A DNA stretch of 6,600 nucleotides from an uncultured Muribaculaceae bacterium. GTDB taxonomy: Bacteria > Bacillota_I > Bacilli_A > RF39 > UBA660. The stretch spans positions 1-6,600 of the forward strand of contig CAYXHQ010000057.1 in assembly GCA_964465245.1 (NCBI GenBank). Direction: 5' to 3'. The notes under the pieces were generated by a model. The model was not told the DNA's origin, did no database searches, and saw nothing but the letters and a program-made list of their open reading frames with translations. Below, one piece after another: positions 1 to 6,600 of this stretch. The number at the start of each line of letters is the position of its first letter. The stretch's first letter is position 1. Made by a program: the position numbers and the translations under genes.

Positions 1-80
1 TAGTATGATAAAGAAAAAAATCCGTAAAAAACGGACTTTAGTCTAAAAATTTACGAATTACTTTGTCAACAGTCTGTAAA

Positions 81-107
81 GACTATAATAAATTATAGTC
101 TTTTTTT
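81..107 (+). terminator. Rho-independent terminator for an upstream, off-window + strand gene
   Basis: A perfect 8-bp stem gactataa (81-88) / ttatagtc (93-100) with a 4-nt loop taaa is followed immediately by T7 (101-107). Confidence 0.6.
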
Positions 108-108
108 G

Positions 109-167
109 TGACTAATTTAAAATACATTCTTTGACTAATTTAAAGTGATGCTATTGACTTATTTAAA
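109..167 (+). repeat. Three direct 13-nt repeats TGACTAATTTAAA with an exact 23-bp period
   Basis: tgactaatttaaa occurs at 109-121 and 132-144 (identical copies). tgacttatttaaa occurs at 155-167 (1 mismatch). The starts at 109, 132 and 155 are spaced exactly 23 bp apart. A fourth, interrupted copy, tgac-cggggggg-ttaaa, lies at 202-218 and overlaps the -35 box. Confidence 0.7.
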
Positions 168-200
168 TCAATCTTAAGAAATTATAATATTCGTTAAGTA

Positions 201-229
201 TTGACCGGGGGGGTTAAATAAGATATAAT
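201..229 (+). promoter_or_regulatory. Sigma70-type promoter of the DGR target gene/operon
   Basis: TTGACC (201-206), a 17-nt spacer (207-223) and TATAAT (224-229). This lies 21 nt upstream of the ATG at 251, with an aaggtaggaaag Shine-Dalgarno region at 236-247. Confidence 0.65.
207..213 (+). repeat. G7 homopolymer inside the promoter spacer (candidate slipped-strand phase-variation tract)
   Basis: ccgggggggtt: seven consecutive G at 207-213, the only long G/C run seen in an otherwise extremely AT-rich window. It lies exactly between the -35 and -10 hexamers. Confidence 0.6.
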
Positions 230-250
230 CTACTTAAGGTAGGAAAGTAT

Positions 251-1858
251 ATGAAGAATAAAAAATTAAACATATTGTTTATTGCTATAATTACATGTTC
301 TATATTTATTTCGAGTGTTTTACTTCAAGCGATAAGTTATAATACAGTAACATTCAATGAAAAAGACACCCTAATAGATAGATACTATAGCGACGTACTT
401 GAACCAAGAAAGAGCGTATTGGTAGAAAGTGCTCCTTTTACATGCACAGGTACTACTAAAATAAGTTGTACTGGCAGTGATAATATTTCTTCAATTTCAG
501 CATCAGAATATAATGCAATCGGAAGAAGGTCTTATCTAACAACGGATGACCCATATTGGGTAACTGGAGATGAAACTGGGACTACTGCAAATAGTGTTAC
601 TATTGATGGATTAAAAGAATTAGCAAAAGAAAATTTATCTGGTGCAAGAGCATCTGTTTATATAAAAGAAAGTACTAAACTTACTGGAAGTGGCACTAGA
701 AGAGACCCTTATAGAATAGAAGAATACATTCCTCCTGTTCCAGAACAAGATGTTAATATTTTAGCAATATATATTGATTGGAATAGTGATGGAGACTATG
801 AAGATAGAGTTGGAGCAGAAGACGAGTCAGTTGCCAGAACTTCTATTCCATCAGATAAAAGTTATGTATTAGATGAGTCTATGACAAATTGTACTAATGG
901 AGAAACTGTTAAATGGAATACGGTATCTAAGTCAATTACTATATCACCCTTAGAAGGACAAACAAGTTGTAGAGTATATCTAAAAAATGTTACAAATTAT
1001 CTAGTAAATGCAATCGCAGAACCTTATAAAACAAATACTGCACAAGGTTCACTGTATAATGAATTTGTAGGCAAATATGTAATAATGGATCCAAGCGTAT
1101 GTAATAGTGCAGGTGTATGTGGACTAATACCTGATCCATACAATAATTTAGCTGTTGCAAATCCACAGTCTGCTTGTAGCTTAAATACTACGGGAGGATT
1201 AACCGATGAATCCACTGGTAACTGTAATGTCAACATAACATATTGTAATTCCTATCCTTCATATCAATCATCCCTTAGAAATTGGAGAATAGTATATGTA
1301 GAAGATTTATACGAACCAACTGATATAACATACAGTAATAAAAATTTAGAAGCAAATATATATATAGTCTCATCTAGAAGTGTAGAATGTAACACTTACA
1401 AAACAAATCCTGCAAATACTATAAGTAATCTTAATAATGCAGCAAAAAAATACTGTAATAATGCAATAGTAGATGGAGGAACTTGCAATAGTACAAACGT
1501 ATATGCATTTAATGGAACAGATTTTGAAAGAATATCAAAGTATACAAGAGGAAGACTAAATTTAGCATCTAACACATTCATCACACTTACTAGTTGCCGG
1601 GATGCCTCAAGCGCTCAATGTTTTAATAGTTCAAAAGATGCAAATAATTTTAATTCGATAGTAAACAATGGCGAATATTATTGGTTTGCTAGTGCAATTG
1701 GCTCTTACGCTGTCTATACCTGGATTCCGGACGCCATGCGTGTGACCAGCAACAACACAAACCCGTTTGGTCTTCGCCCTGTCCTAAAGCTAAAATCTGG
1801 TATCAAATATACGGGTGGAACAGGTACTGCGGAAGATCCGTATAAAATAATACCTTAA
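251..1858 (+). CDS. DGR target (variable) protein; secreted or surface Cys-rich protein with a diversified C-terminal ligand-binding domain
   Basis: A 535-aa ORF with an RBS. The N-terminus MKNKKLNILFIAIITCSIFISSVLL looks like a signal peptide or membrane anchor (a possible non-canonical lipobox at IIT-C). There are many Cys residues. The C-terminal codons 480-505 form the VR matching the TR at 3058-3146. The ...NPFGLRPVLKLK ending resembles the last strand of C-type-lectin-fold DGR variable domains, but the family cannot be assigned by eye. Confidence 0.9.
   Translation: MKNKKLNILFIAIITCSIFISSVLLQAISYNTVTFNEKDTLIDRYYSDVLEPRKSVLVESAPFTCTGTTKISCTGSDNISSISASEYNAIGRRSYLTTDDPYWVTGDETGTTANSVTIDGLKELAKENLSGARASVYIKESTKLTGSGTRRDPYRIEEYIPPVPEQDVNILAIYIDWNSDGDYEDRVGAEDESVARTSIPSDKSYVLDESMTNCTNGETVKWNTVSKSITISPLEGQTSCRVYLKNVTNYLVNAIAEPYKTNTAQGSLYNEFVGKYVIMDPSVCNSAGVCGLIPDPYNNLAVANPQSACSLNTTGGLTDESTGNCNVNITYCNSYPSYQSSLRNWRIVYVEDLYEPTDITYSNKNLEANIYIVSSRSVECNTYKTNPANTISNLNNAAKKYCNNAIVDGGTCNSTNVYAFNGTDFERISKYTRGRLNLASNTFITLTSCRDASSAQCFNSSKDANNFNSIVNNGEYYWFASAIGSYAVYTWIPDAMRVTSNNTNPFGLRPVLKLKSGIKYTGGTGTAEDPYKIIP
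1686..1777 (+). other. DGR variable region (VR)
   Basis: Aligns with the TR at 3058-3146. Every substitution is at a TR adenine and non-A positions are 100% identical. It ends in a shared 14-nt A-free block, cgtttggtcttcgc (1764-1777). Confidence 0.92.
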
Positions 1859-1870
1859 TGGAAAAAAGGA

Positions 1871-1904
1871 ATTCACTAAGTGGGCTTTTAGTCCACTAGT
1901 GAAT
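1871..1904 (+). other. Inverted repeat/hairpin just after the target-gene stop codon (candidate DGR target-site cruciform or attenuator)
   Basis: attcactaagtgg (1871-1883) pairs with ccactagtgaat (1893-1904): a 12-bp stem with one bulged A and a 9-nt loop gcttttagt. No T-run follows on the + strand. An A6 run precedes it, which would be a T-run on the - strand. Confidence 0.5.
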
Positions 1905-1912
1905 GAGTAAAA

Positions 1913-2314
1913 ATGATTGATGATATAAAAAAAGTGGAAAATAATAGTTTGATAATTATACTAGATTTAGATAAATATATTGTTTATTATAATGATATAT
2001 ATATTCTATACTATTTCTTTAACTATAAATATTTTGTTAATAAAAAAGGCAAGTATTTAACAAATAGTTTAAAATACTTAAATAGAGTAATAAAAATATT
2101 AAATGAATATAAAATTAATTATTTAGTATTAGAAAAAAGAAATAATTATAACACTTTAATGAATAAAAAATTTGATGATAATTTTTATAAATATTATATA
2201 AAAAAAGGAAAGACAAAATATAAAAGAAAAAAAATAATTAATAATATGTATAAATCTCTTAAGAAAATTGATAATGTGAGAATACTAAAGATAATAGAGG
2301 AATGTAATTTATGA
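1913..2314 (+). CDS. Small MutS N-terminal-domain-like DGR accessory protein, divergent copy 1
   Basis: A 133-aa ORF paralogous to the next ORF. DKYIVYYN-DIYILYYFFNYK...TNSLKYLNRVIKILNEYKINYLV aligns with GKFYITFNKDAYIVGGIFNYK...INSLAKVINKLENMKINYIV. Its stop overlaps the next start (ATGA at 2311-2314). Confidence 0.6.
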   Translation: MIDDIKKVENNSLIIILDLDKYIVYYNDIYILYYFFNYKYFVNKKGKYLTNSLKYLNRVIKILNEYKINYLVLEKRNNYNTLMNKKFDDNFYKYYIKKGKTKYKRKKIINNMYKSLKKIDNVRILKIIEECNL

Positions 2315-2706
2315 AAGAAAAATATGAAAAAATTAAAAATGAGTATTTAGAATATGTTGTTTTTATTAAAAGCGGAAAATTTTATATAACTTTTAATAAA
2401 GATGCATATATTGTTGGTGGGATTTTTAATTATAAAATAATAAATTCTAAAGTTGGATTTCCTATTAATTCTTTAGCAAAGGTAATTAATAAATTGGAAA
2501 ATATGAAAATCAATTATATAGTTGATAATGATGAAAAGAAAAATTTTAAAAATTTAAATAATTATAATGATTGTTATAAAAGATGTTGTGAATTACAAGA
2601 GAAAAGAAAAAATATTGAAAATATAGTTAAGTGTTTAAATAAATCTATAAATAGTGATGAATTTAATATAATTATTAAAAAAATAAATGGTATTATTAAT
2701 GAATAA
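2311..2706 (+). CDS. Small MutS N-terminal (mismatch-binding domain I)-like DGR accessory protein, copy 2
   Basis: A 131-aa ORF with a gagga RBS about 11 nt upstream. KYEKIKNEYLEYVVFIKSGKFYITFNKDAYIVGGIFNYKII..KVGFPINSLAKVINKLENMKINYIV parallels E. coli MutS [68 protein letters not shown]. It has no ATPase or other MutS domains. Confidence 0.65.
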   Translation: MKEKYEKIKNEYLEYVVFIKSGKFYITFNKDAYIVGGIFNYKIINSKVGFPINSLAKVINKLENMKINYIVDNDEKKNFKNLNNYNDCYKRCCELQEKRKNIENIVKCLNKSINSDEFNIIIKKINGIINE

Positions 2707-3052
2707 TGAAGATAATTTTAAAATTTTTTATTATATCAAAAGATTAATTAAATATTATGATAAAATATTGATTAATTTTCCACATAAAGAATTAGAATTA
2801 AAAAAAATATTAGTTAATGAATTACATTTAATACTTAAATTAAGTTACTTGGCAAATGAATCTAAAAATGATATCAGATATAATTATCAATGTGAAATGG
2901 TTGCTTCTATTAAGTTTGTATGTTTTATAACAGATGAATGTGAAGAAAAGTGTATTATATCTAAAAAACAATATTTATTGATAGGAGAGAATCTCAACAA
3001 TATTTTGAAGTATTTAAAAGGATGGATGAAATCCTGTTTAAAGAAGGTGTAG
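2699..3052 (+). CDS. avd: Avd (accessory variability determinant), four-helix-bundle protein
   Basis: About 117-121 aa and predicted all-helical. LINFPHKELELKKILVNELHLILKLSYLANESKN and IGENLNNILKYLKGWMKS parallel Bordetella-phage bAvd IAQSIPRKHGVAREMFLKCLLGQVELFIVAGKSN and IAEVGRILGSWIAR. It sits immediately upstream of the TR, the canonical avd position. The start is either ATG 2699 (overlapping the upstream stop at 2704-2706) or ATG 2687. Confidence 0.8.
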   Translation: MNNEDNFKIFYYIKRLIKYYDKILINFPHKELELKKILVNELHLILKLSYLANESKNDIRYNYQCEMVASIKFVCFITDECEEKCIISKKQYLLIGENLNNILKYLKGWMKSCLKKV

Positions 3053-3057
3053 AATTG

Positions 3058-3146
3058 TAAATAGTGCAAATGACTCAAACAATGTCTATAACTGGAATCC
3101 GAACAACATGAATGTGAACAACAACACAAACACGTTTGGTCTTCGC
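3058..3146 (+). other. DGR template repeat (TR)
   Basis: Begins 6 nt after the avd stop. Read in the VR frame it is aat agt gca aat gac tca aac aat gtc tat aac tgg aat ccg aac aac atg aat gtg aac aac aac aca aac acg ttt ggt ctt cgc. That gives 13 AAY codons out of 29, and a TGA stop follows immediately. It is non-coding, and the - strand ORF 2887-3231 over it is spurious. Confidence 0.92.
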
Positions 3147-3294
3147 TGATTTCAAATATATGTTTGAATATAATAACTATGTGTTTTATATGAATACGTA
3201 TTTGAACAAATTTTATTCCTTGATTTATCAAAAATTAAAAAAGCAAATTATGGTGTTAGTAAATTAATTTGAAAAGGCTAATAATTTAAAAATC

Positions 3295-3333
3295 TTTTTT
3301 ATTAAAAAGTATTAGGTACTTTTTAATAAGGAA
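3295..3333 (+). promoter_or_regulatory. Long hairpin in the TR-RT spacer that overlaps the RT Shine-Dalgarno sequence
   Basis: The perfect 11-bp core attaaaaagta (3301-3311) / tactttttaat (3317-3327) has a loop ttagg. It can be extended by tttttt (3295-3300) pairing with aaggaa (3328-3333), including G-U pairs, which covers the aagga RBS 8 nt upstream of ATG 3341. Confidence 0.5.
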
Positions 3334-3340
3334 TATTTTT

Positions 3341-4276
3341 ATGAAAAGAATCAACAATATTTATGAAAATTGTTATAATATAAATAATATTTTATTATCT
3401 TTTGATGAAGTTATCTATAAAACTAAAAATAAAAAAGAAGTAAATAAAGCATTATCATTAAAACCAATATATATTTATAATGCATATAATGTTTTGAAAA
3501 ATAGAATATATGCTCCTGGAGATTATATCCATAAAATAATATATGAGCCTAAAAAAAGAGATATTTATTATCAAAATATATTTGATAAACTAATTAATAA
3601 TATAGTATGTAGGAATATACTTATACCTTGTTTAGAACCCTCTTTAATCAATACTTCTGTAGCAAGCAGAAAAAACATGGGTACTCATAAAGGATTAAAA
3701 TTATATTTTGAATATAGAAGGATAATGAATAAAAAATATAAAAAGTATTATATTTTAAAACTTGATATTAAAGGTTATTATAAACACATATCAAAAGAAG
3801 TATTATATAAAAAAGTGTGTAATAAAATTAAAGATAAAGAAGCATTAAAAATAATTTATAACATTATTTTTTCTTTTAAAGAAAGTGGGATTTCTATTGG
3901 AAATATGTCTAGTCAAATATTTGCGTTATATTATCTAAATGAAATTGATCATATGATAAAAGAGGAGTTTAAAATAAAGTATTATATAAGATATCAAGAT
4001 GATTTTATTTTAATGCATAATAATTTAGAAAATTTAAAAAAAGTATTAAATGTTTTAAAAAAAGAATTATTAAATATAAATTTAGAAATAAATAATAAAA
4101 CTAAAATATATTCAAACAAAGATAATATGATTTTTTTGGGTGTAAACAAGTTTGGAAAAAGAAAAATTAAATTTAACAAAATAAAGAATATTAAAAAATC
4201 TTATATGAATGAAAATCTAAATTTAAATCATTACATATTTTTAAAAAAATATTACAAAGAAAAATTGTTTTATTGA
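3341..4276 (+). CDS. DGR reverse transcriptase
   Basis: A 311-aa ORF. RT motifs present are IYEPKKRDIY (1), SVASRKNMGTHKGL (2a), YILKLDIKGYYKHIS (3), GISIGNMSSQIFALYYLNEIDH (4, with the DGR-diagnostic GxxxSQ at nt 3896-3916), YIRYQDDFIL (5, YQDD at 3992-4003) and MIFLG (7). It has no maturase/X, endonuclease or retron-type features. Confidence 0.93.
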   Translation: MKRINNIYENCYNINNILLSFDEVIYKTKNKKEVNKALSLKPIYIYNAYNVLKNRIYAPGDYIHKIIYEPKKRDIYYQNIFDKLINNIVCRNILIPCLEPSLINTSVASRKNMGTHKGLKLYFEYRRIMNKKYKKYYILKLDIKGYYKHISKEVLYKKVCNKIKDKEALKIIYNIIFSFKESGISIGNMSSQIFALYYLNEIDHMIKEEFKIKYYIRYQDDFILMHNNLENLKKVLNVLKKELLNINLEINNKTKIYSNKDNMIFLGVNKFGKRKIKFNKIKNIKKSYMNENLNLNHYIFLKKYYKEKLFY

Positions 4277-4301
4277 TAGAATAATATTTAAATGTTAAAA
4301 T
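4273..4301 (+). promoter_or_regulatory. Possible ffh promoter (extended -10)
   Basis: TTGATA (4273-4278), a 17-nt spacer and TAAAAT (4296-4301) preceded by TGT (4293-4295). Such matches are easy to get by chance in AT-rich DNA. Confidence 0.3.
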
Positions 4302-4325
4302 AAGATATAGAAAAAAGGTGAATAT

Positions 4326-5633
4326 ATGTTTGAGAATTTAAGTGATAAGTTAAGTGGAATACTTAGTAAAGTTAAAGGGTATGGTGTAATTACTGAGGAA
4401 AATATTAGTGAAAGTTTAAGAGAGATTAGACTTTGTTTATTAGGCGCGGACGTTAACTATACTATTGTTAAAGAGTTTGTTGAGAATATTAAAAATAAAG
4501 CTTTGGGAGAAGAAGTTAAAAAAAGTTTAAGACCTGGAGACTTATTTGTTAAAATTGTTAAAGATGAACTTGTTAGTTTGCTTGGAGGTGACTCTAGTCC
4601 TTTAGAAGTAACTAAGAAACCCACCATTGTTATGCTTGCTGGTCTTCAAGGAAGTGGCAAAACTACTACTATTGGTAAACTTGGTGCGATGGTTCGCAAG
4701 AAACATTATAAGAAACCAATCTTTATTGCATGTGATATTTATAGACCAGCTGCGGTGAACCAACTTAAAGATATTGGTAGAAGTCTAGATATTGAAGTAT
4801 ACTCAGAAGACTCTAAAGACGCAGTGCAAATTGCTAAGAATGGAGTGGAGTACGCTAAAAACAATGGATTTGATTATATACTAATAGATACTGCTGGTAG
4901 ACTTCAAATAGATGATACTCTTATGCGAGAGTTAGTAGATATAGAAAGTAGTGTAAGTATAAATGAAACATTACTTGTAATAGATGCAACTATGGGACAA
5001 GATGCAATTAATGTTATAAATGGATTTAATGATAAAATTAAACTTACTGGGTGTATTTTAACAAAGATGGACGGGGACACTAAAGGTGGAGTTGCTTTGT
5101 CTCTACGCTATTTAACACATGTTCCAATTAAGTTTATAGGTGACTCTGAAAAATTAGATGGATTAAGTGAATTTGATCCTACTAGAATGGCATCAAGAAT
5201 AATAGGAGAGGGTGACTTAATGTCTATTATAGAAAAAACTGAATCTGTAATAGATATGGATGAAGCAGCAAAAACAGCTAAAAACTTTGAAAAAGGAAAA
5301 TTTGATTTAGAAGACTTTTTAATTACTATGAAGCAAATAAAGAAAATGGGACCACTTGAGAATTTGTTAAAAATGGTTCCTGGTGCTTCTAAGATGGGTT
5401 TAAACAATGTAAACATAGACCCAAAAATGATGGCGAGAACTGAAGCAATAGTTTTATCAATGACACCATATGAAAGAAGAAACCCTAATGTTTTAAAAGC
5501 TACTAGAAAGATAAGAATATCTGCGGGTTCTGGTGCCTCTGTTGAAGAAGTTAATAGATTACTTAAGCAATTTGAAATGATGCAAGGTATGATGAAAAAA
5601 GTTAAATCTGGTAATTTTAAGATGCCTTTTTAA
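4326..5633 (+). CDS. ffh: Signal recognition particle protein Ffh (SRP54)
   Basis: A 435-aa ORF with an aaggtga RBS. It has an N domain, GTPase motifs GLQGSGKTTT, DTAGR and TKMDGD, and a Met-rich M domain (LENLLKMVPG..., FEMMQGMMKK). Confidence 0.97.
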   Translation: MFENLSDKLSGILSKVKGYGVITEENISESLREIRLCLLGADVNYTIVKEFVENIKNKALGEEVKKSLRPGDLFVKIVKDELVSLLGGDSSPLEVTKKPTIVMLAGLQGSGKTTTIGKLGAMVRKKHYKKPIFIACDIYRPAAVNQLKDIGRSLDIEVYSEDSKDAVQIAKNGVEYAKNNGFDYILIDTAGRLQIDDTLMRELVDIESSVSINETLLVIDATMGQDAINVINGFNDKIKLTGCILTKMDGDTKGGVALSLRYLTHVPIKFIGDSEKLDGLSEFDPTRMASRIIGEGDLMSIIEKTESVIDMDEAAKTAKNFEKGKFDLEDFLITMKQIKKMGPLENLLKMVPGASKMGLNNVNIDPKMMARTEAIVLSMTPYERRNPNVLKATRKIRISAGSGASVEEVNRLLKQFEMMQGMMKKVKSGNFKMPF

Positions 5634-5707
5634 AAAATAATTAAAAAACTTTCATTAAAAAAAAGCGTTTTAAGGAAAAAATGGCGATAATATATATAGA
5701 GGGATAT

Positions 5708-5739
5708 AAAGAAACTCGAAAAAAGTTTCTTTTTATTTT
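5708..5739 (+). terminator. Probable rho-independent terminator downstream of ffh
   Basis: A 9-bp stem aaagaaact (5708-5716) / agtttcttt (5724-5732) with a 7-nt loop is followed by ttatttt. The stem is AT-rich and therefore weak. Confidence 0.5.
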
Positions 5740-5760
5740 GAAAGAAAGGAATCGTTATTT

Positions 5761-6600
5761 ATGGAAAATTTAAAATCAAAAAATTTTAGTGAAAGCATAT
5801 TTGATAATATTAAGCATATCGATGAGTATGGAAATGAGTATTGGTCTGCAAGAGAATTGCAAAAAGTGTTGGAGTATGCTCAATGGAGAAGGTTTGAGAG
5901 TGTTATCAATCGAGCAAAAGAAGCGTGTACGAATAGTAAAAATACTAAAATTGACCATTTTGCCAAGGTTGGCAAAATGGTTCAAATAGGTTCAAATGCT
6001 AAAAAGGAAATTATAGACTATAATTTGTCAAGATATGCATGCTATCTTATTGTGCAAAATGGAGACCCAAAAAAAGATGTAATAGCTTTAGGACAAACTT
6101 ACTTTGCTATTCAAACAAGACGTCAAGAATTGAATGAAATGGAATATAAGAGTTTATCAGAAGATGAAAAAAGATTATATAGAAGAAAGCAAACAAAAGA
6201 CGGAAATAAAATATTATACTCTACTGCTTTAAAAAAAGGGGTAAAAAACTTTGATAAGTTTACTAATTATGGATATAAGGGACTGTATGGTGGTGAGACT
6301 GCTGCAGATATAGCGAAAAGAAAAAAACTTAGATATAGAGAAGACATTCTTGATAATATGGGAAGTACAGAATTAGGTGCTAATATATTTAGAATTACGC
6401 AAACTGAAGAACTATTAAAAACACAAAAAGAAATAAGTGAGAAGATTTCAAATGATACACATTATAAAGTTGGAACTGCTATAAGAAATACAATAAAAAA
6501 GTTAGGCGGTACTATGCCAGAAAAGTTACCTACGCCAAATAAAAGTATAAAAGAATTAGAAAAAGTAAGAACTAACAATAAAATTATAAAAAATAAATAA
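5761..6600 (+). CDS. dinD: DNA-damage-inducible protein D (DinD) family protein
   Basis: A 279-aa ORF with an aaagga RBS. EYWSARELQKVLEYAQWRRFESVINRAKEAC...DHF...IGSNAKKEIIDYNLSRYACYLIVQNGDPKKDVIALGQTYFAIQTRRQE matches the conserved DinD N-terminal pattern. The stop TAA falls at 6598-6600. Confidence 0.8.
   Translation: MENLKSKNFSESIFDNIKHIDEYGNEYWSARELQKVLEYAQWRRFESVINRAKEACTNSKNTKIDHFAKVGKMVQIGSNAKKEIIDYNLSRYACYLIVQNGDPKKDVIALGQTYFAIQTRRQELNEMEYKSLSEDEKRLYRRKQTKDGNKILYSTALKKGVKNFDKFTNYGYKGLYGGETAADIAKRKKLRYREDILDNMGSTELGANIFRITQTEELLKTQKEISEKISNDTHYKVGTAIRNTIKKLGGTMPEKLPTPNKSIKELEKVRTNNKIIKNK

Follow-up and report, generated by a model that had tools for sequence, protein, structure and literature searches.

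The locus described here raises the question of whether a gene whose 3' end departs from a neighboring repeat only at the adenines of that repeat is the target of a complete diversity-generating retroelement (DGR), and whether such an element has been in recent use. The locus lies in a stretch of 6,600 nucleotides (positions 1 to 6,600, forward strand, of contig CAYXHQ010000057.1, assembly GCA_964465245.1, from an uncultured Muribaculaceae bacterium placed by GTDB in RF39; UBA660), which in its entirety is called the window. On the plus strand of the window, a target gene (positions 251-1858) carrying a variable repeat (VR) at its 3' end is followed by genes for two MutS-like (MSL) proteins, MSL-B (1913-2314) and MSL-A (2311-2706), by avd (2699-3052), by the template repeat (TR), by a 194-nt spacer and by a reverse transcriptase (RT) gene (3341-4276). 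We conclude with high confidence that the window holds a complete chromosomal DGR that works by mutagenic retrohoming and was recently active.

Pairwise alignment of the VR (1686-1777, 92 nt) with the TR (3058-3146, 89 nt), both on the plus strand, gave 18 mismatches, in every one of which a TR adenine was replaced by another base in the VR (7 C, 6 G and 5 T). No mismatch was found at the 53 aligned TR positions occupied by C, G or T. As 36 of the 89 aligned positions are adenines, a hypergeometric test gives a probability of about 3e-9 for all 18 mismatches being at adenine. The initial annotation of this DNA had counted 17 to 19 substitutions, all at template adenines, and had proposed that mismatches be tabulated by TR base; this tabulation placed all 18 at adenine rather than spreading them over the four bases, and the codon lists and both translations given there were also correct. 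The 5'-most mismatches (VR 1687-1689 TGC versus TR 3059-3061 AAA) are at the outermost 5' margin of the homology and recur unchanged in a second allele of the locus, described below; these three positions may lie outside the region that was truly exchanged, which would leave 15 secure substitutions. Because of this edge position and the sharing between alleles, an honest range is 15 to 18 substitutions. A generic repeat finder recovered just a 28-nt 3' block of the pair, since the remaining sequence is too divergent for ungapped extension.

The TR is non-coding and intergenic, beginning 6 nt past avd and ending 194 nt ahead of the RT gene. It is 40% adenine and, read in the frame of the VR, has 13 AAY codons, as had been claimed, among them those of an (AAC)3 tract. 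Codon positions 1 and 2 hold 32 of the 36 adenines. The VR is longer than the TR by a single 3-nt insertion, which is best read from the sequence as (AAC)3 of the TR having become four AAC-derived VR codons, ACC AGC AAC AAC. The diversified core of the VR spans approximately 1690-1763, with the extra AAC-derived codon lying within 1745-1756. At their 3' ends the two repeats share an identical, relatively GC-rich block of 14 nt, CGTTTGGTCTTCGC, after which homology ends abruptly (1777 in the VR, 3146 in the TR). The VR 3' flank, CCTGTCCTAAAG..., is related to but diverged from the TR flank, TGATTTCAAAT... (3133-3165). This boundary (1764-1797, plus strand) resembles the initiation of mutagenic homing (IMH) sequence, and the TR side resembles its counterpart IMH*; by analogy with the Bordetella phage model, the arrangement is compatible with an IMH function. 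The pair itself, the adenine-rich non-coding TR between avd and a DGR-type RT gene, and the position of the VR at the 3' end of the target support the proposal of the initial annotation that this is the signature of mutagenic retrohoming.

Evidence of activity came from a second allele. The exact RT protein of the window was also found on a Logan assembly of run SRR8925823 (locus L002), which corresponds to window positions 80-4911. Outside the VR, the two sequences differed by 4 substitutions in ~4.7 kb, one in the target gene (position 1253) and three in the downstream ffh gene, and their TRs were identical. Within the unambiguous 57-nt block at 1688-1744, 17 of the 24 positions opposite TR adenines differed between the two VRs, and the other 33 positions were all identical. 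The VR was therefore overwritten from an unchanged TR while its flanks gained about 0.08% divergence, and the identity of the TR together with so few flanking substitutions makes this rewriting very recent relative to the background divergence. The earlier claim that the element is or was recently active is borne out by this allele, whereas the heavy divergence of VR from TR on which that claim had been based is by itself a weak argument. Exact-flank searches of JGI metagenome contigs and IMG/VR found no further copies of the VR, and a cluster look-up returned no VR alleles beyond those of the window and L002.

The two alleles also differ in length. The L002 target has 538 aa compared with 535 aa in the window, and its VR has 101 nt, 9 nt more than that of the window; relative to the TR, the VRs are longer by 3 nt (window) and 12 nt (L002). 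The 3' tail of the TR reads (AAC)3-ACA-AAC-ACG. When the window tail was modeled as (AAC)4, 3 changes at adenine and none elsewhere were required, and when the L002 tail was modeled as (AAC)7, 9 changes at adenine and one non-adenine change were required. The length changes are whole AAC units and fit an expansion of the (AAC)3 of the TR, which would have become (AAC)4 in the window and (AAC)7 in L002. The single exception to adenine specificity, at approximately L002 1690-1695 in the 3' tail of the VR (TR 3144-3146 region), is an apparent change of TR codon ACG to AGG, the only one among about 24 changes in the L002 VR overall. It could instead have originated as an assembly chimera; non-adenine changes between TR and VR are reported for 23% of DGRs by Wu et al. 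2018 (PMC5758913). The same survey gives TR/VR length differences for 7% of DGRs, places 74% of these next to AAC, and proposes slippage of the RT as their cause. The allele pair, with 3 units becoming 4 and 7 on a background of 4 substitutions, supports that idea beyond a single comparison of one TR with one VR and is a compact natural example of (AAC)n expansion.

The best-surviving alternative leaves the DGR in place and concerns these lengths, attributing the additional 3 and 12 nt to assembly chimeras or to slippage during chromosomal replication rather than to slippage of the RT. Short-read assemblers collapse or mix polymorphic regions, the only non-adenine change sits in the L002 tail, and in a sister DGR, the TR of which also contains (AAC)3, all four VR alleles are free of indels. 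On the other hand, the reading frame and the conserved frame downstream of it are kept in both assemblies, and both insertions consist of whole AAC-derived codons in the type of tract that, according to Wu et al., holds 74% of DGR indels. The VR tract, moreover, is no longer a perfect repeat once its adenines have been mutagenized, which makes chromosomal slippage a less probable source than slippage on the template, where (AAC)3 is perfect. We therefore regard this alternative as unlikely, and slippage of the RT on (AAC)3 would be the most probable source of the length changes.

The sister DGR just mentioned shows the same behavior as the window. It is represented by two loci, L006 and L009, that are 99% identical overall and have identical TRs, and their VRs differ at 15 positions (VR1) and 27 positions (VR2). 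With (AAC)3 in the TR, 0 of these 4 VR alleles contain indels. A-specific TR/VR pairs together with MSL and Avd genes were found in L006 and in three further related loci, L001, L003 and L007.

The RT gene (3341-4276, plus strand) encodes an intact protein of 311 aa with the motifs IGNMSSQ (aa 186-192, nt 3896-3916) and YQDD (aa 218-221, nt 3992-4003) and with D142. The motif [ILV]GxxxSQ in RT domain 4 is the signature that sets DGR RTs apart. The best match among solved structures was 8ub7 chain A (E 9e-21), and matches to group II intron RTs were at 3.5e-7 or weaker. The alignment to 8ub7 showed conservation of D138, I181, G182, Q187 and D215/216; since these are the residue numbers given by Handa et al. 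(bioRxiv 2023.10.23.563531) for bRT of the Bordetella phage, the 8ub7 chain was identified as bRT. Family scans gave a match to Pfam RVT_1 and one of 210 bits to a PHROG RT family, and the best named NCBIfam matches, to group II intron RT and Drt3a, were both far under their cut-offs. Relatives of the protein are about 50% identical to it and all come from uncultured bacteria, with named records assigned to Clostridia or Bacilli. Judged by its motifs and its best structure match, this RT belongs to the DGR clade. A defense-associated RT (DRT/UG, retron or Abi) was considered and rejected: the best PADLOC model was the generic "RT" at 96.6 bits, DRT models reached at most 72 bits with partial coverage, and no partner genes were present.

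The avd gene (accessory variability determinant; 2699-3052, plus strand) encodes 117 aa with an isoelectric point (pI) of 9.0, or 121 aa from an alternative start at 2687. Avd is found in about 74% of DGRs. The window protein matched Pfam bAvd at 21.9 bits across the full profile (cut-off 40), the NCBIfam model at 26.5 bits (cut-off 80) and the PHROG family "Avd protein of DGR" at E 1.7e-6. It is 35-40% identical to four Avd-like open reading frames (ORFs) of its clade and 30% identical to two in L006, one of which is a second, short Avd-like ORF at L006 5435-5695; 5 of the 7 clade ORFs matched bAvd, with E values down to 8e-12. A profile of the clade Avd proteins found no match in the PDB. 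By these family matches the ORF is an Avd homologue.

That the DGR has decayed or is currently silent, so that the divergence of the VR and the two alleles are relics of past ancestral activity, is in our judgment very improbable. All ORFs are intact, the RT retains its catalytic and DGR motifs, the identical TR with flanks differing by 4 substitutions in ~4.7 kb indicates very recent VR rewriting, and the sister element in L006 and L009 has the same pattern. These observations stand against the small number of known alleles (just two), the extreme composition of the accessory and RT block (17% GC) and the lack of conserved motifs in MSL-B, all of which would be in keeping with silence. The remaining alternative, an ordinary partial duplication or pseudogene fragment that happens to show an adenine bias beside an unrelated RT (of a group II intron, retron or defense system), draws on the sub-threshold NCBIfam names and weak PADLOC DRT matches and is effectively refuted by the probability of 3e-9 for 18 of 18 mismatches on adenine, the repetition of the pattern in the second allele, the presence of [ILV]GxxxSQ, a bRT match far above those to group II RTs, the placement of Avd and MSL between target and TR as in catalogued DGRs, and the finding of no intron or retron RNA family, with no match of any kind at E≤1 in an Rfam scan of the whole window.

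The target gene (251-1858, plus strand) encodes a protein of 535 aa with an N-terminal hydrophobic signal or anchor, 15 cysteines and a pI of 5.0. The VR encodes aa 480-509, within a C-terminal variable domain whose conserved frame is YW[LF]AS...(variable)...G[LF]RP[VI]..L.S.I..G.G...PY.I. By BLASTP the protein matched both L006 targets (E 4e-22 and 1e-23), but it is nearly an orphan: a word-indexed search of 5.8 billion clustered proteins returned one homologue only, P0123. A profile built from the C-terminal domains of the window target and related DGR targets retrieved 38 proteins. The family scan of the window target found no Pfam domain above threshold, and none was found for the C-terminal region in the 38 retrieved proteins, among which P0140 has an fn3 domain elsewhere. 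Against DUF6273 (PF19789), the window C-terminus scored 14.4 bits (E 0.035), under the cut-off of 23.5, and such sub-threshold matches, at the C-terminal end of the profile, were obtained for 7 of 37 family members including that of the window. DUF6273 is a C-type-lectin-like DGR target domain in which the VR lies at the C-terminal end (PMC10743442, PMC11792537). Given the sub-threshold score, the window domain is called DUF6273-like rather than filed as a member of DUF6273.

Structural comparison of the target relied on a homologue. P0148, a family member of 243 aa, was modeled at a predicted local distance difference test (pLDDT) score of 92, and Foldseek matched this model to DUF6273 phage proteins and to the N-terminal domain of 9qa6 (E 4e-4 to 3e-3, TM 0.3-0.44). 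Entry 9qa6 is the IgA peptidase of T. ramosa, the N-terminal domain of which is DUF6273. The full target sequence had no match in the PDB.

The single homologue P0123, encoded at L005 945-2324 in the same run SRR8925823, is 51% identical to the target over the C-terminal half. Its gene adjoins one for an Asp/Glu racemase, and its N-terminus has the canonical prepilin methylation motif KKGFTLMELL and a match to Pfam N_methyl; this protein suggests that the target family was derived from pilin-like surface proteins. A pilin-type N-terminus was rejected for the window target itself, which starts MKNKKLNILFIAIITCSIF... and lacks both the Gly at -1 and the Glu at +5 of the G/FTLxE motif. P0123 was also ruled out as a second, remote target of the window TR, with which it shares a match of 10 nt only (TGGTCTTCGC). 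In side matches from BLASTP, aa ~100-157 of the window target (window ~548-721), PYWVTGDE...GARASVYIKESTKLTGSGTRRDPYRI, echo the C-terminal frame YWFAS...GLRPVLKLKSG...GTGTAEDPYKI; this segment may represent a further, degenerate copy of the C-terminal domain that does not vary.

MSL-A (2311-2706, plus strand; 131 aa, pI 9.2) is a MutS-like accessory protein that matched Pfam MutS_I at 34.4 bits, above the cut-off of 20.6. A profile of the clade MSL proteins matched domain I of Taq and E. coli MutS in the PDB; of GxFYE, the mismatch-binding motif of MutS, the Phe is retained and the Glu is missing. When MSL-A was the query of an exhaustive phmmer search, 573 clusters at 50% identity were returned, mostly stand-alone proteins of 110-150 aa. 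MSL-B (1913-2314, plus strand; 133 aa, pI 9.7) is a diverged MutS-domain-I-like paralogue without the G-x-F-Y and GFP motifs. It had no Pfam match of its own in the window family scan, and it matched MSL-A by BLASTP at E 6e-6, with 43% identity over 51 aa. Its best partner, at 52-54 bits, was a 149-aa ORF at the same position in L006, where the gene order is exactly that of the window. MSL accessory genes were defined by Wu et al. 2018 (PMC5758913), in whose survey they occur in 16 of 372 DGRs and always with avd, as "Architecture D." Consistent with this architecture, MSL and avd occur in the window without HRDC: the ORF at 2311-2706 stands with avd, and the Pfam scan of the window proteins gave no HRDC match.

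A second MutS-domain-I unit recurs among the relatives. In L001, L003 and L007, target, MSL, avd and TR lie on one strand, and on the opposite strand the RT has a second MutS_I unit, either immediately 5' of it or as an N-terminal fusion. The unit is immediately upstream of the RT and overlaps the RT start at L001 5582-6001 and L007 5574-6017, and it is fused to the RT N-terminus in P0027 (L003 296-1642, 448 aa). In L008, one MSL is visible where the contig ends. MSL-B scored 33-48 bits with MSL of the avd-adjacent type and 18 bits or less with the RT-adjacent type; since it is nearer to the former, the second MSL seems, on these scores, to have arisen at least twice. In Wu et al., the MutS_I similarity of RTs that is mentioned is weak, C-terminal and limited to three RTs. 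In work on Bacteroides DGRs, Macadangdang et al. (bioRxiv 2024.11.15.621889) describe Msl and report that in this host MutS reduces retrohoming by a factor of 5-10, as an all-or-nothing effect. The recurrence of two MutS-domain-I proteins beside Avd and RT, considered with this suppression by host MutS, makes the role of Msl an experimentally tractable question.

We suggest that the MSL proteins might bind the heavily mismatched heteroduplex of cDNA and VR and so shield it from host MutS. A more specific proposal, which we offer tentatively and consider rather doubtful, is that the core of this clade is a four-protein machine composed of RT, Avd and two different MutS-domain-I proteins, with the second unit present as a tandem duplicate (window and L006) or as a copy adjacent or fused to the RT (L001, L003 and L007). 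The pair would form a MutS-like asymmetric dimer on the mismatched and looped cDNA:VR heteroduplex, hiding it from host mismatch repair. If so, dense substitutions and (AAC)n slippage products would both be fixed, and the binding loop would vary in length as well as in sequence.

The regions flanking the TR have features suggestive of a structured RNA. The TR-RT spacer (3147-3340, plus strand, 194 nt) contains the conserved blocks GTTTTATATGAATA, GTGTTAGTAA and TGAAAAGGCTAA and presumably forms the 3', non-coding portion of the DGR RNA. Its identity between the window and L006 is 70%, with long identical blocks; coding genes reach 59-66% and shuffled sequences 56±1.7%. Just 5' of the TR, a conserved block, AAGAAGGTGTAGAATT (3041-3056, plus strand), is kept in L006 whatever the reading frame of avd. 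Within the spacer it paired best with the block that is the most conserved there, at 3208-3223 (12 bp, -9.5 kcal/mol), and the equivalent duplex in L006 had -9.8 kcal/mol; in L001, a different 13-bp duplex joined upstream and downstream sequences at a similar distance (z -2.4). Handa et al. (bioRxiv 2023.10.23.563531) predicted a "cPRT Stop" duplex in 207 of 278 Avd-containing DGRs, and the resemblance of the predicted duplex of 3041-3056 with 3208-3223, which brackets the TR, to that duplex is suggestive. A hairpin directly 3' of the TR (3151-3168) was not significant alone (z -1.1), and its L006 equivalent was not the minimum free energy fold. The spacer ends in a hairpin with 25-bp arms (3287-3341, plus strand), the equivalent of which carries a T-run and is terminator-like in the relatives with divergent strands. 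A consensus fold of the spacer across subclades was set aside, the alignment of such AT-rich sequence being unreliable. In L008, two ~350-nt copies (137-486 and 2531-2885) are 82% identical, and each contains a TR-like segment and a conserved spacer; their differences are not adenine-specific, and they may be two distinct TR-spacer units of one DGR.

With these components, the proposed DGR would operate in several steps. RT and Avd would bind a transcript that runs from the end of avd through the TR (3058-3146) and the 194-nt spacer, and the RT would copy the TR into cDNA in a cis-primed reaction, inserting random nucleotides opposite template adenines. Guided by the GC-rich IMH-like block, the cDNA would replace the VR (~1690-1777) at the 3' end of the target while leaving the TR unchanged. 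The predicted outcome is the recoding of up to ~20 codons in a loop of the DUF6273-like (C-type-lectin-like) domain at the C-terminus of a protein that is secreted or anchored in the membrane, with loop length also altered, most likely through RT slippage on (AAC)3.

Several points weigh against this interpretation. The VR variation documented here is a difference between two assemblies, from samples that may or may not be related, and would be indirect evidence for ongoing diversification within one population. Because assembly in a polymorphic population may yield a chimeric VR, the adenine-specific pattern is on firmer ground than the precise indel alleles, and the L002 VR has its one apparent non-adenine change (ACG to AGG). 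Both the Avd protein (21.9 versus 40 bits) and the target domain (14.4 versus 23.5 bits for DUF6273) fall under the curated cut-offs. The model of the C-terminal 141 aa of the window target, made from a 37-sequence alignment, had a pLDDT of 50 and was unusable, and the fold is taken from the homologue. The RNA features are suggestive, with shuffle fractions for the duplex of 0.07 (window) and 0.02 (L006) and a hairpin z of -1.1.

The genomic setting of the element is chromosomal, as indicated by its neighbors: the RT gene is followed by ffh (4326-5633, above the TIGR00959 cut-off) and then by a dinD-like gene (5761-6600). The DinD-like/Bro-N protein encoded by the latter, which runs to the end of the window, matched NCBIfam DNA damage-inducible protein D at 354 bits and the PADLOC candidate defense family PDC-S13 at 336 bits. 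No tRNAs were found in the window. GC content was 17% in the accessory and RT block (1913-4276), 33% in the target gene, 32% in ffh, 29% in dinD and 52% in the VR; this compositional step might be due to horizontal acquisition of the core, or else to codon use that is relaxed or biased. A hairpin (1871-1904, plus strand; z -2.85 for the DNA fold of 1760-1910) that follows the stop codon of the target, 94 nt beyond the VR end, could be a candidate transcription attenuator or a cruciform-type element like those 3' of some VRs.

Upstream of the target, the best sigma-70-like match was TTGACC-17-TATAAT (201-229, plus strand), an 11/12 match to the consensus; promoter-like sites in total were not above shuffle expectation, and this one is a putative promoter from which the target gene, and perhaps the entire cassette, would be transcribed. 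Just 5' of it, the motif TGACT[AT]ATTTAAA occurs three times in exact 23-nt phase (at 109, 132 and 155; window 109-167). The chance expectation was 0.29, and 0 of 200 shuffles reached three copies. Among the related loci the motif is absent, and it was found only in L002, which is the same locus. The array may represent regulator-binding sites that control the target or the DGR operon. Further upstream, a hairpin at 17-39 (core TCCGTAAAAAACGGA), bordered by runs of A and T, resembles a bidirectional terminator that would close the gene preceding the DGR locus.

Compared with known systems, the mechanism is canonical. The MSL genes and the AAC-adjacent length changes are catalogued variants rather than new classes, since both have already been described (Wu et al.; Macadangdang et al.). 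Three features merit recording: the pair of alleles, the variation in (AAC)n length and the recurrence of a double-MSL arrangement. The locus, which the initial annotation recognized correctly as a DGR from sequence alone, adds an active element from a poorly known, very AT-rich uncultured bacterium, the relatives of which are recorded as Bacilli and Clostridia.

A close likeness is to the element of L006 and L009, from uncultured Bacilli of gut metagenomes (RT P0025), with which the window shares the order of target, MSL-B, MSL-A, avd, TR, ~194-nt spacer and RT. The targets are homologous, the TRs are of similar design, the conserved spacer blocks and terminal hairpin are present in both, and in both cases VRs differ between near-identical copies. 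The RTs, however, are ~53% identical, and L006 differs from the window in having a second target, a second short Avd-like ORF and no indels in its VR alleles. This sister DGR (L006 2773-8909, and L009), in a gut Bacilli metagenome-assembled genome, has its two targets upstream and directly downstream of the RT, and both match one TR.

The prototype, mtd-avd-TR-brt of Bordetella phage BPP-1, has in common with the window the order of target, avd, TR and RT, the placement of the VR in the 3'-terminal part of the target, adenine-specific substitutions, and a GC-rich 3' block of VR and TR followed by diverging flanks (IMH/IMH* in the prototype, IMH-like in the window). The conserved RT residues match those of bRT, and both elements have a long non-coding spacer after the TR and a candidate duplex bracketing it. 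Unlike the prototype, the window element is chromosomal, adjoining ffh, and has two MutS-domain-I genes between target and avd; its target is not Mtd-like, its RT is distantly related to bRT, and its VR and TR differ in length.

The MSL-containing DGRs (Architecture D, PMC5758913), among them those of Legionella and of Bacteroides (Bfr/Bth/Bun; bioRxiv 2024.11.15.621889), resemble the window in combining a small stand-alone MutS-like protein with avd and lacking HRDC, and in-frame VR indels beside AAC repeats are found in part of the survey of Wu et al. In contrast to the MSL DGRs described in the text of that survey, the window and the whole sampled RT clade have two MutS-domain-I units. The DUF6273 DGR targets of phages of gut Firmicutes (tentaclins and a Faecalibacterium prophage; PMC10743442, PMC11792537) likewise have the VR at the C-terminal end of the domain, and the window target is linked to them by weak Pfam similarity and by the match of the homologue model. 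It differs from them in its sub-threshold match and in being cellular and cysteine-rich, with an N-terminal anchor and without Ig or fn3 domains, and it differs from most of its own relatives in having a much shorter variable insert.

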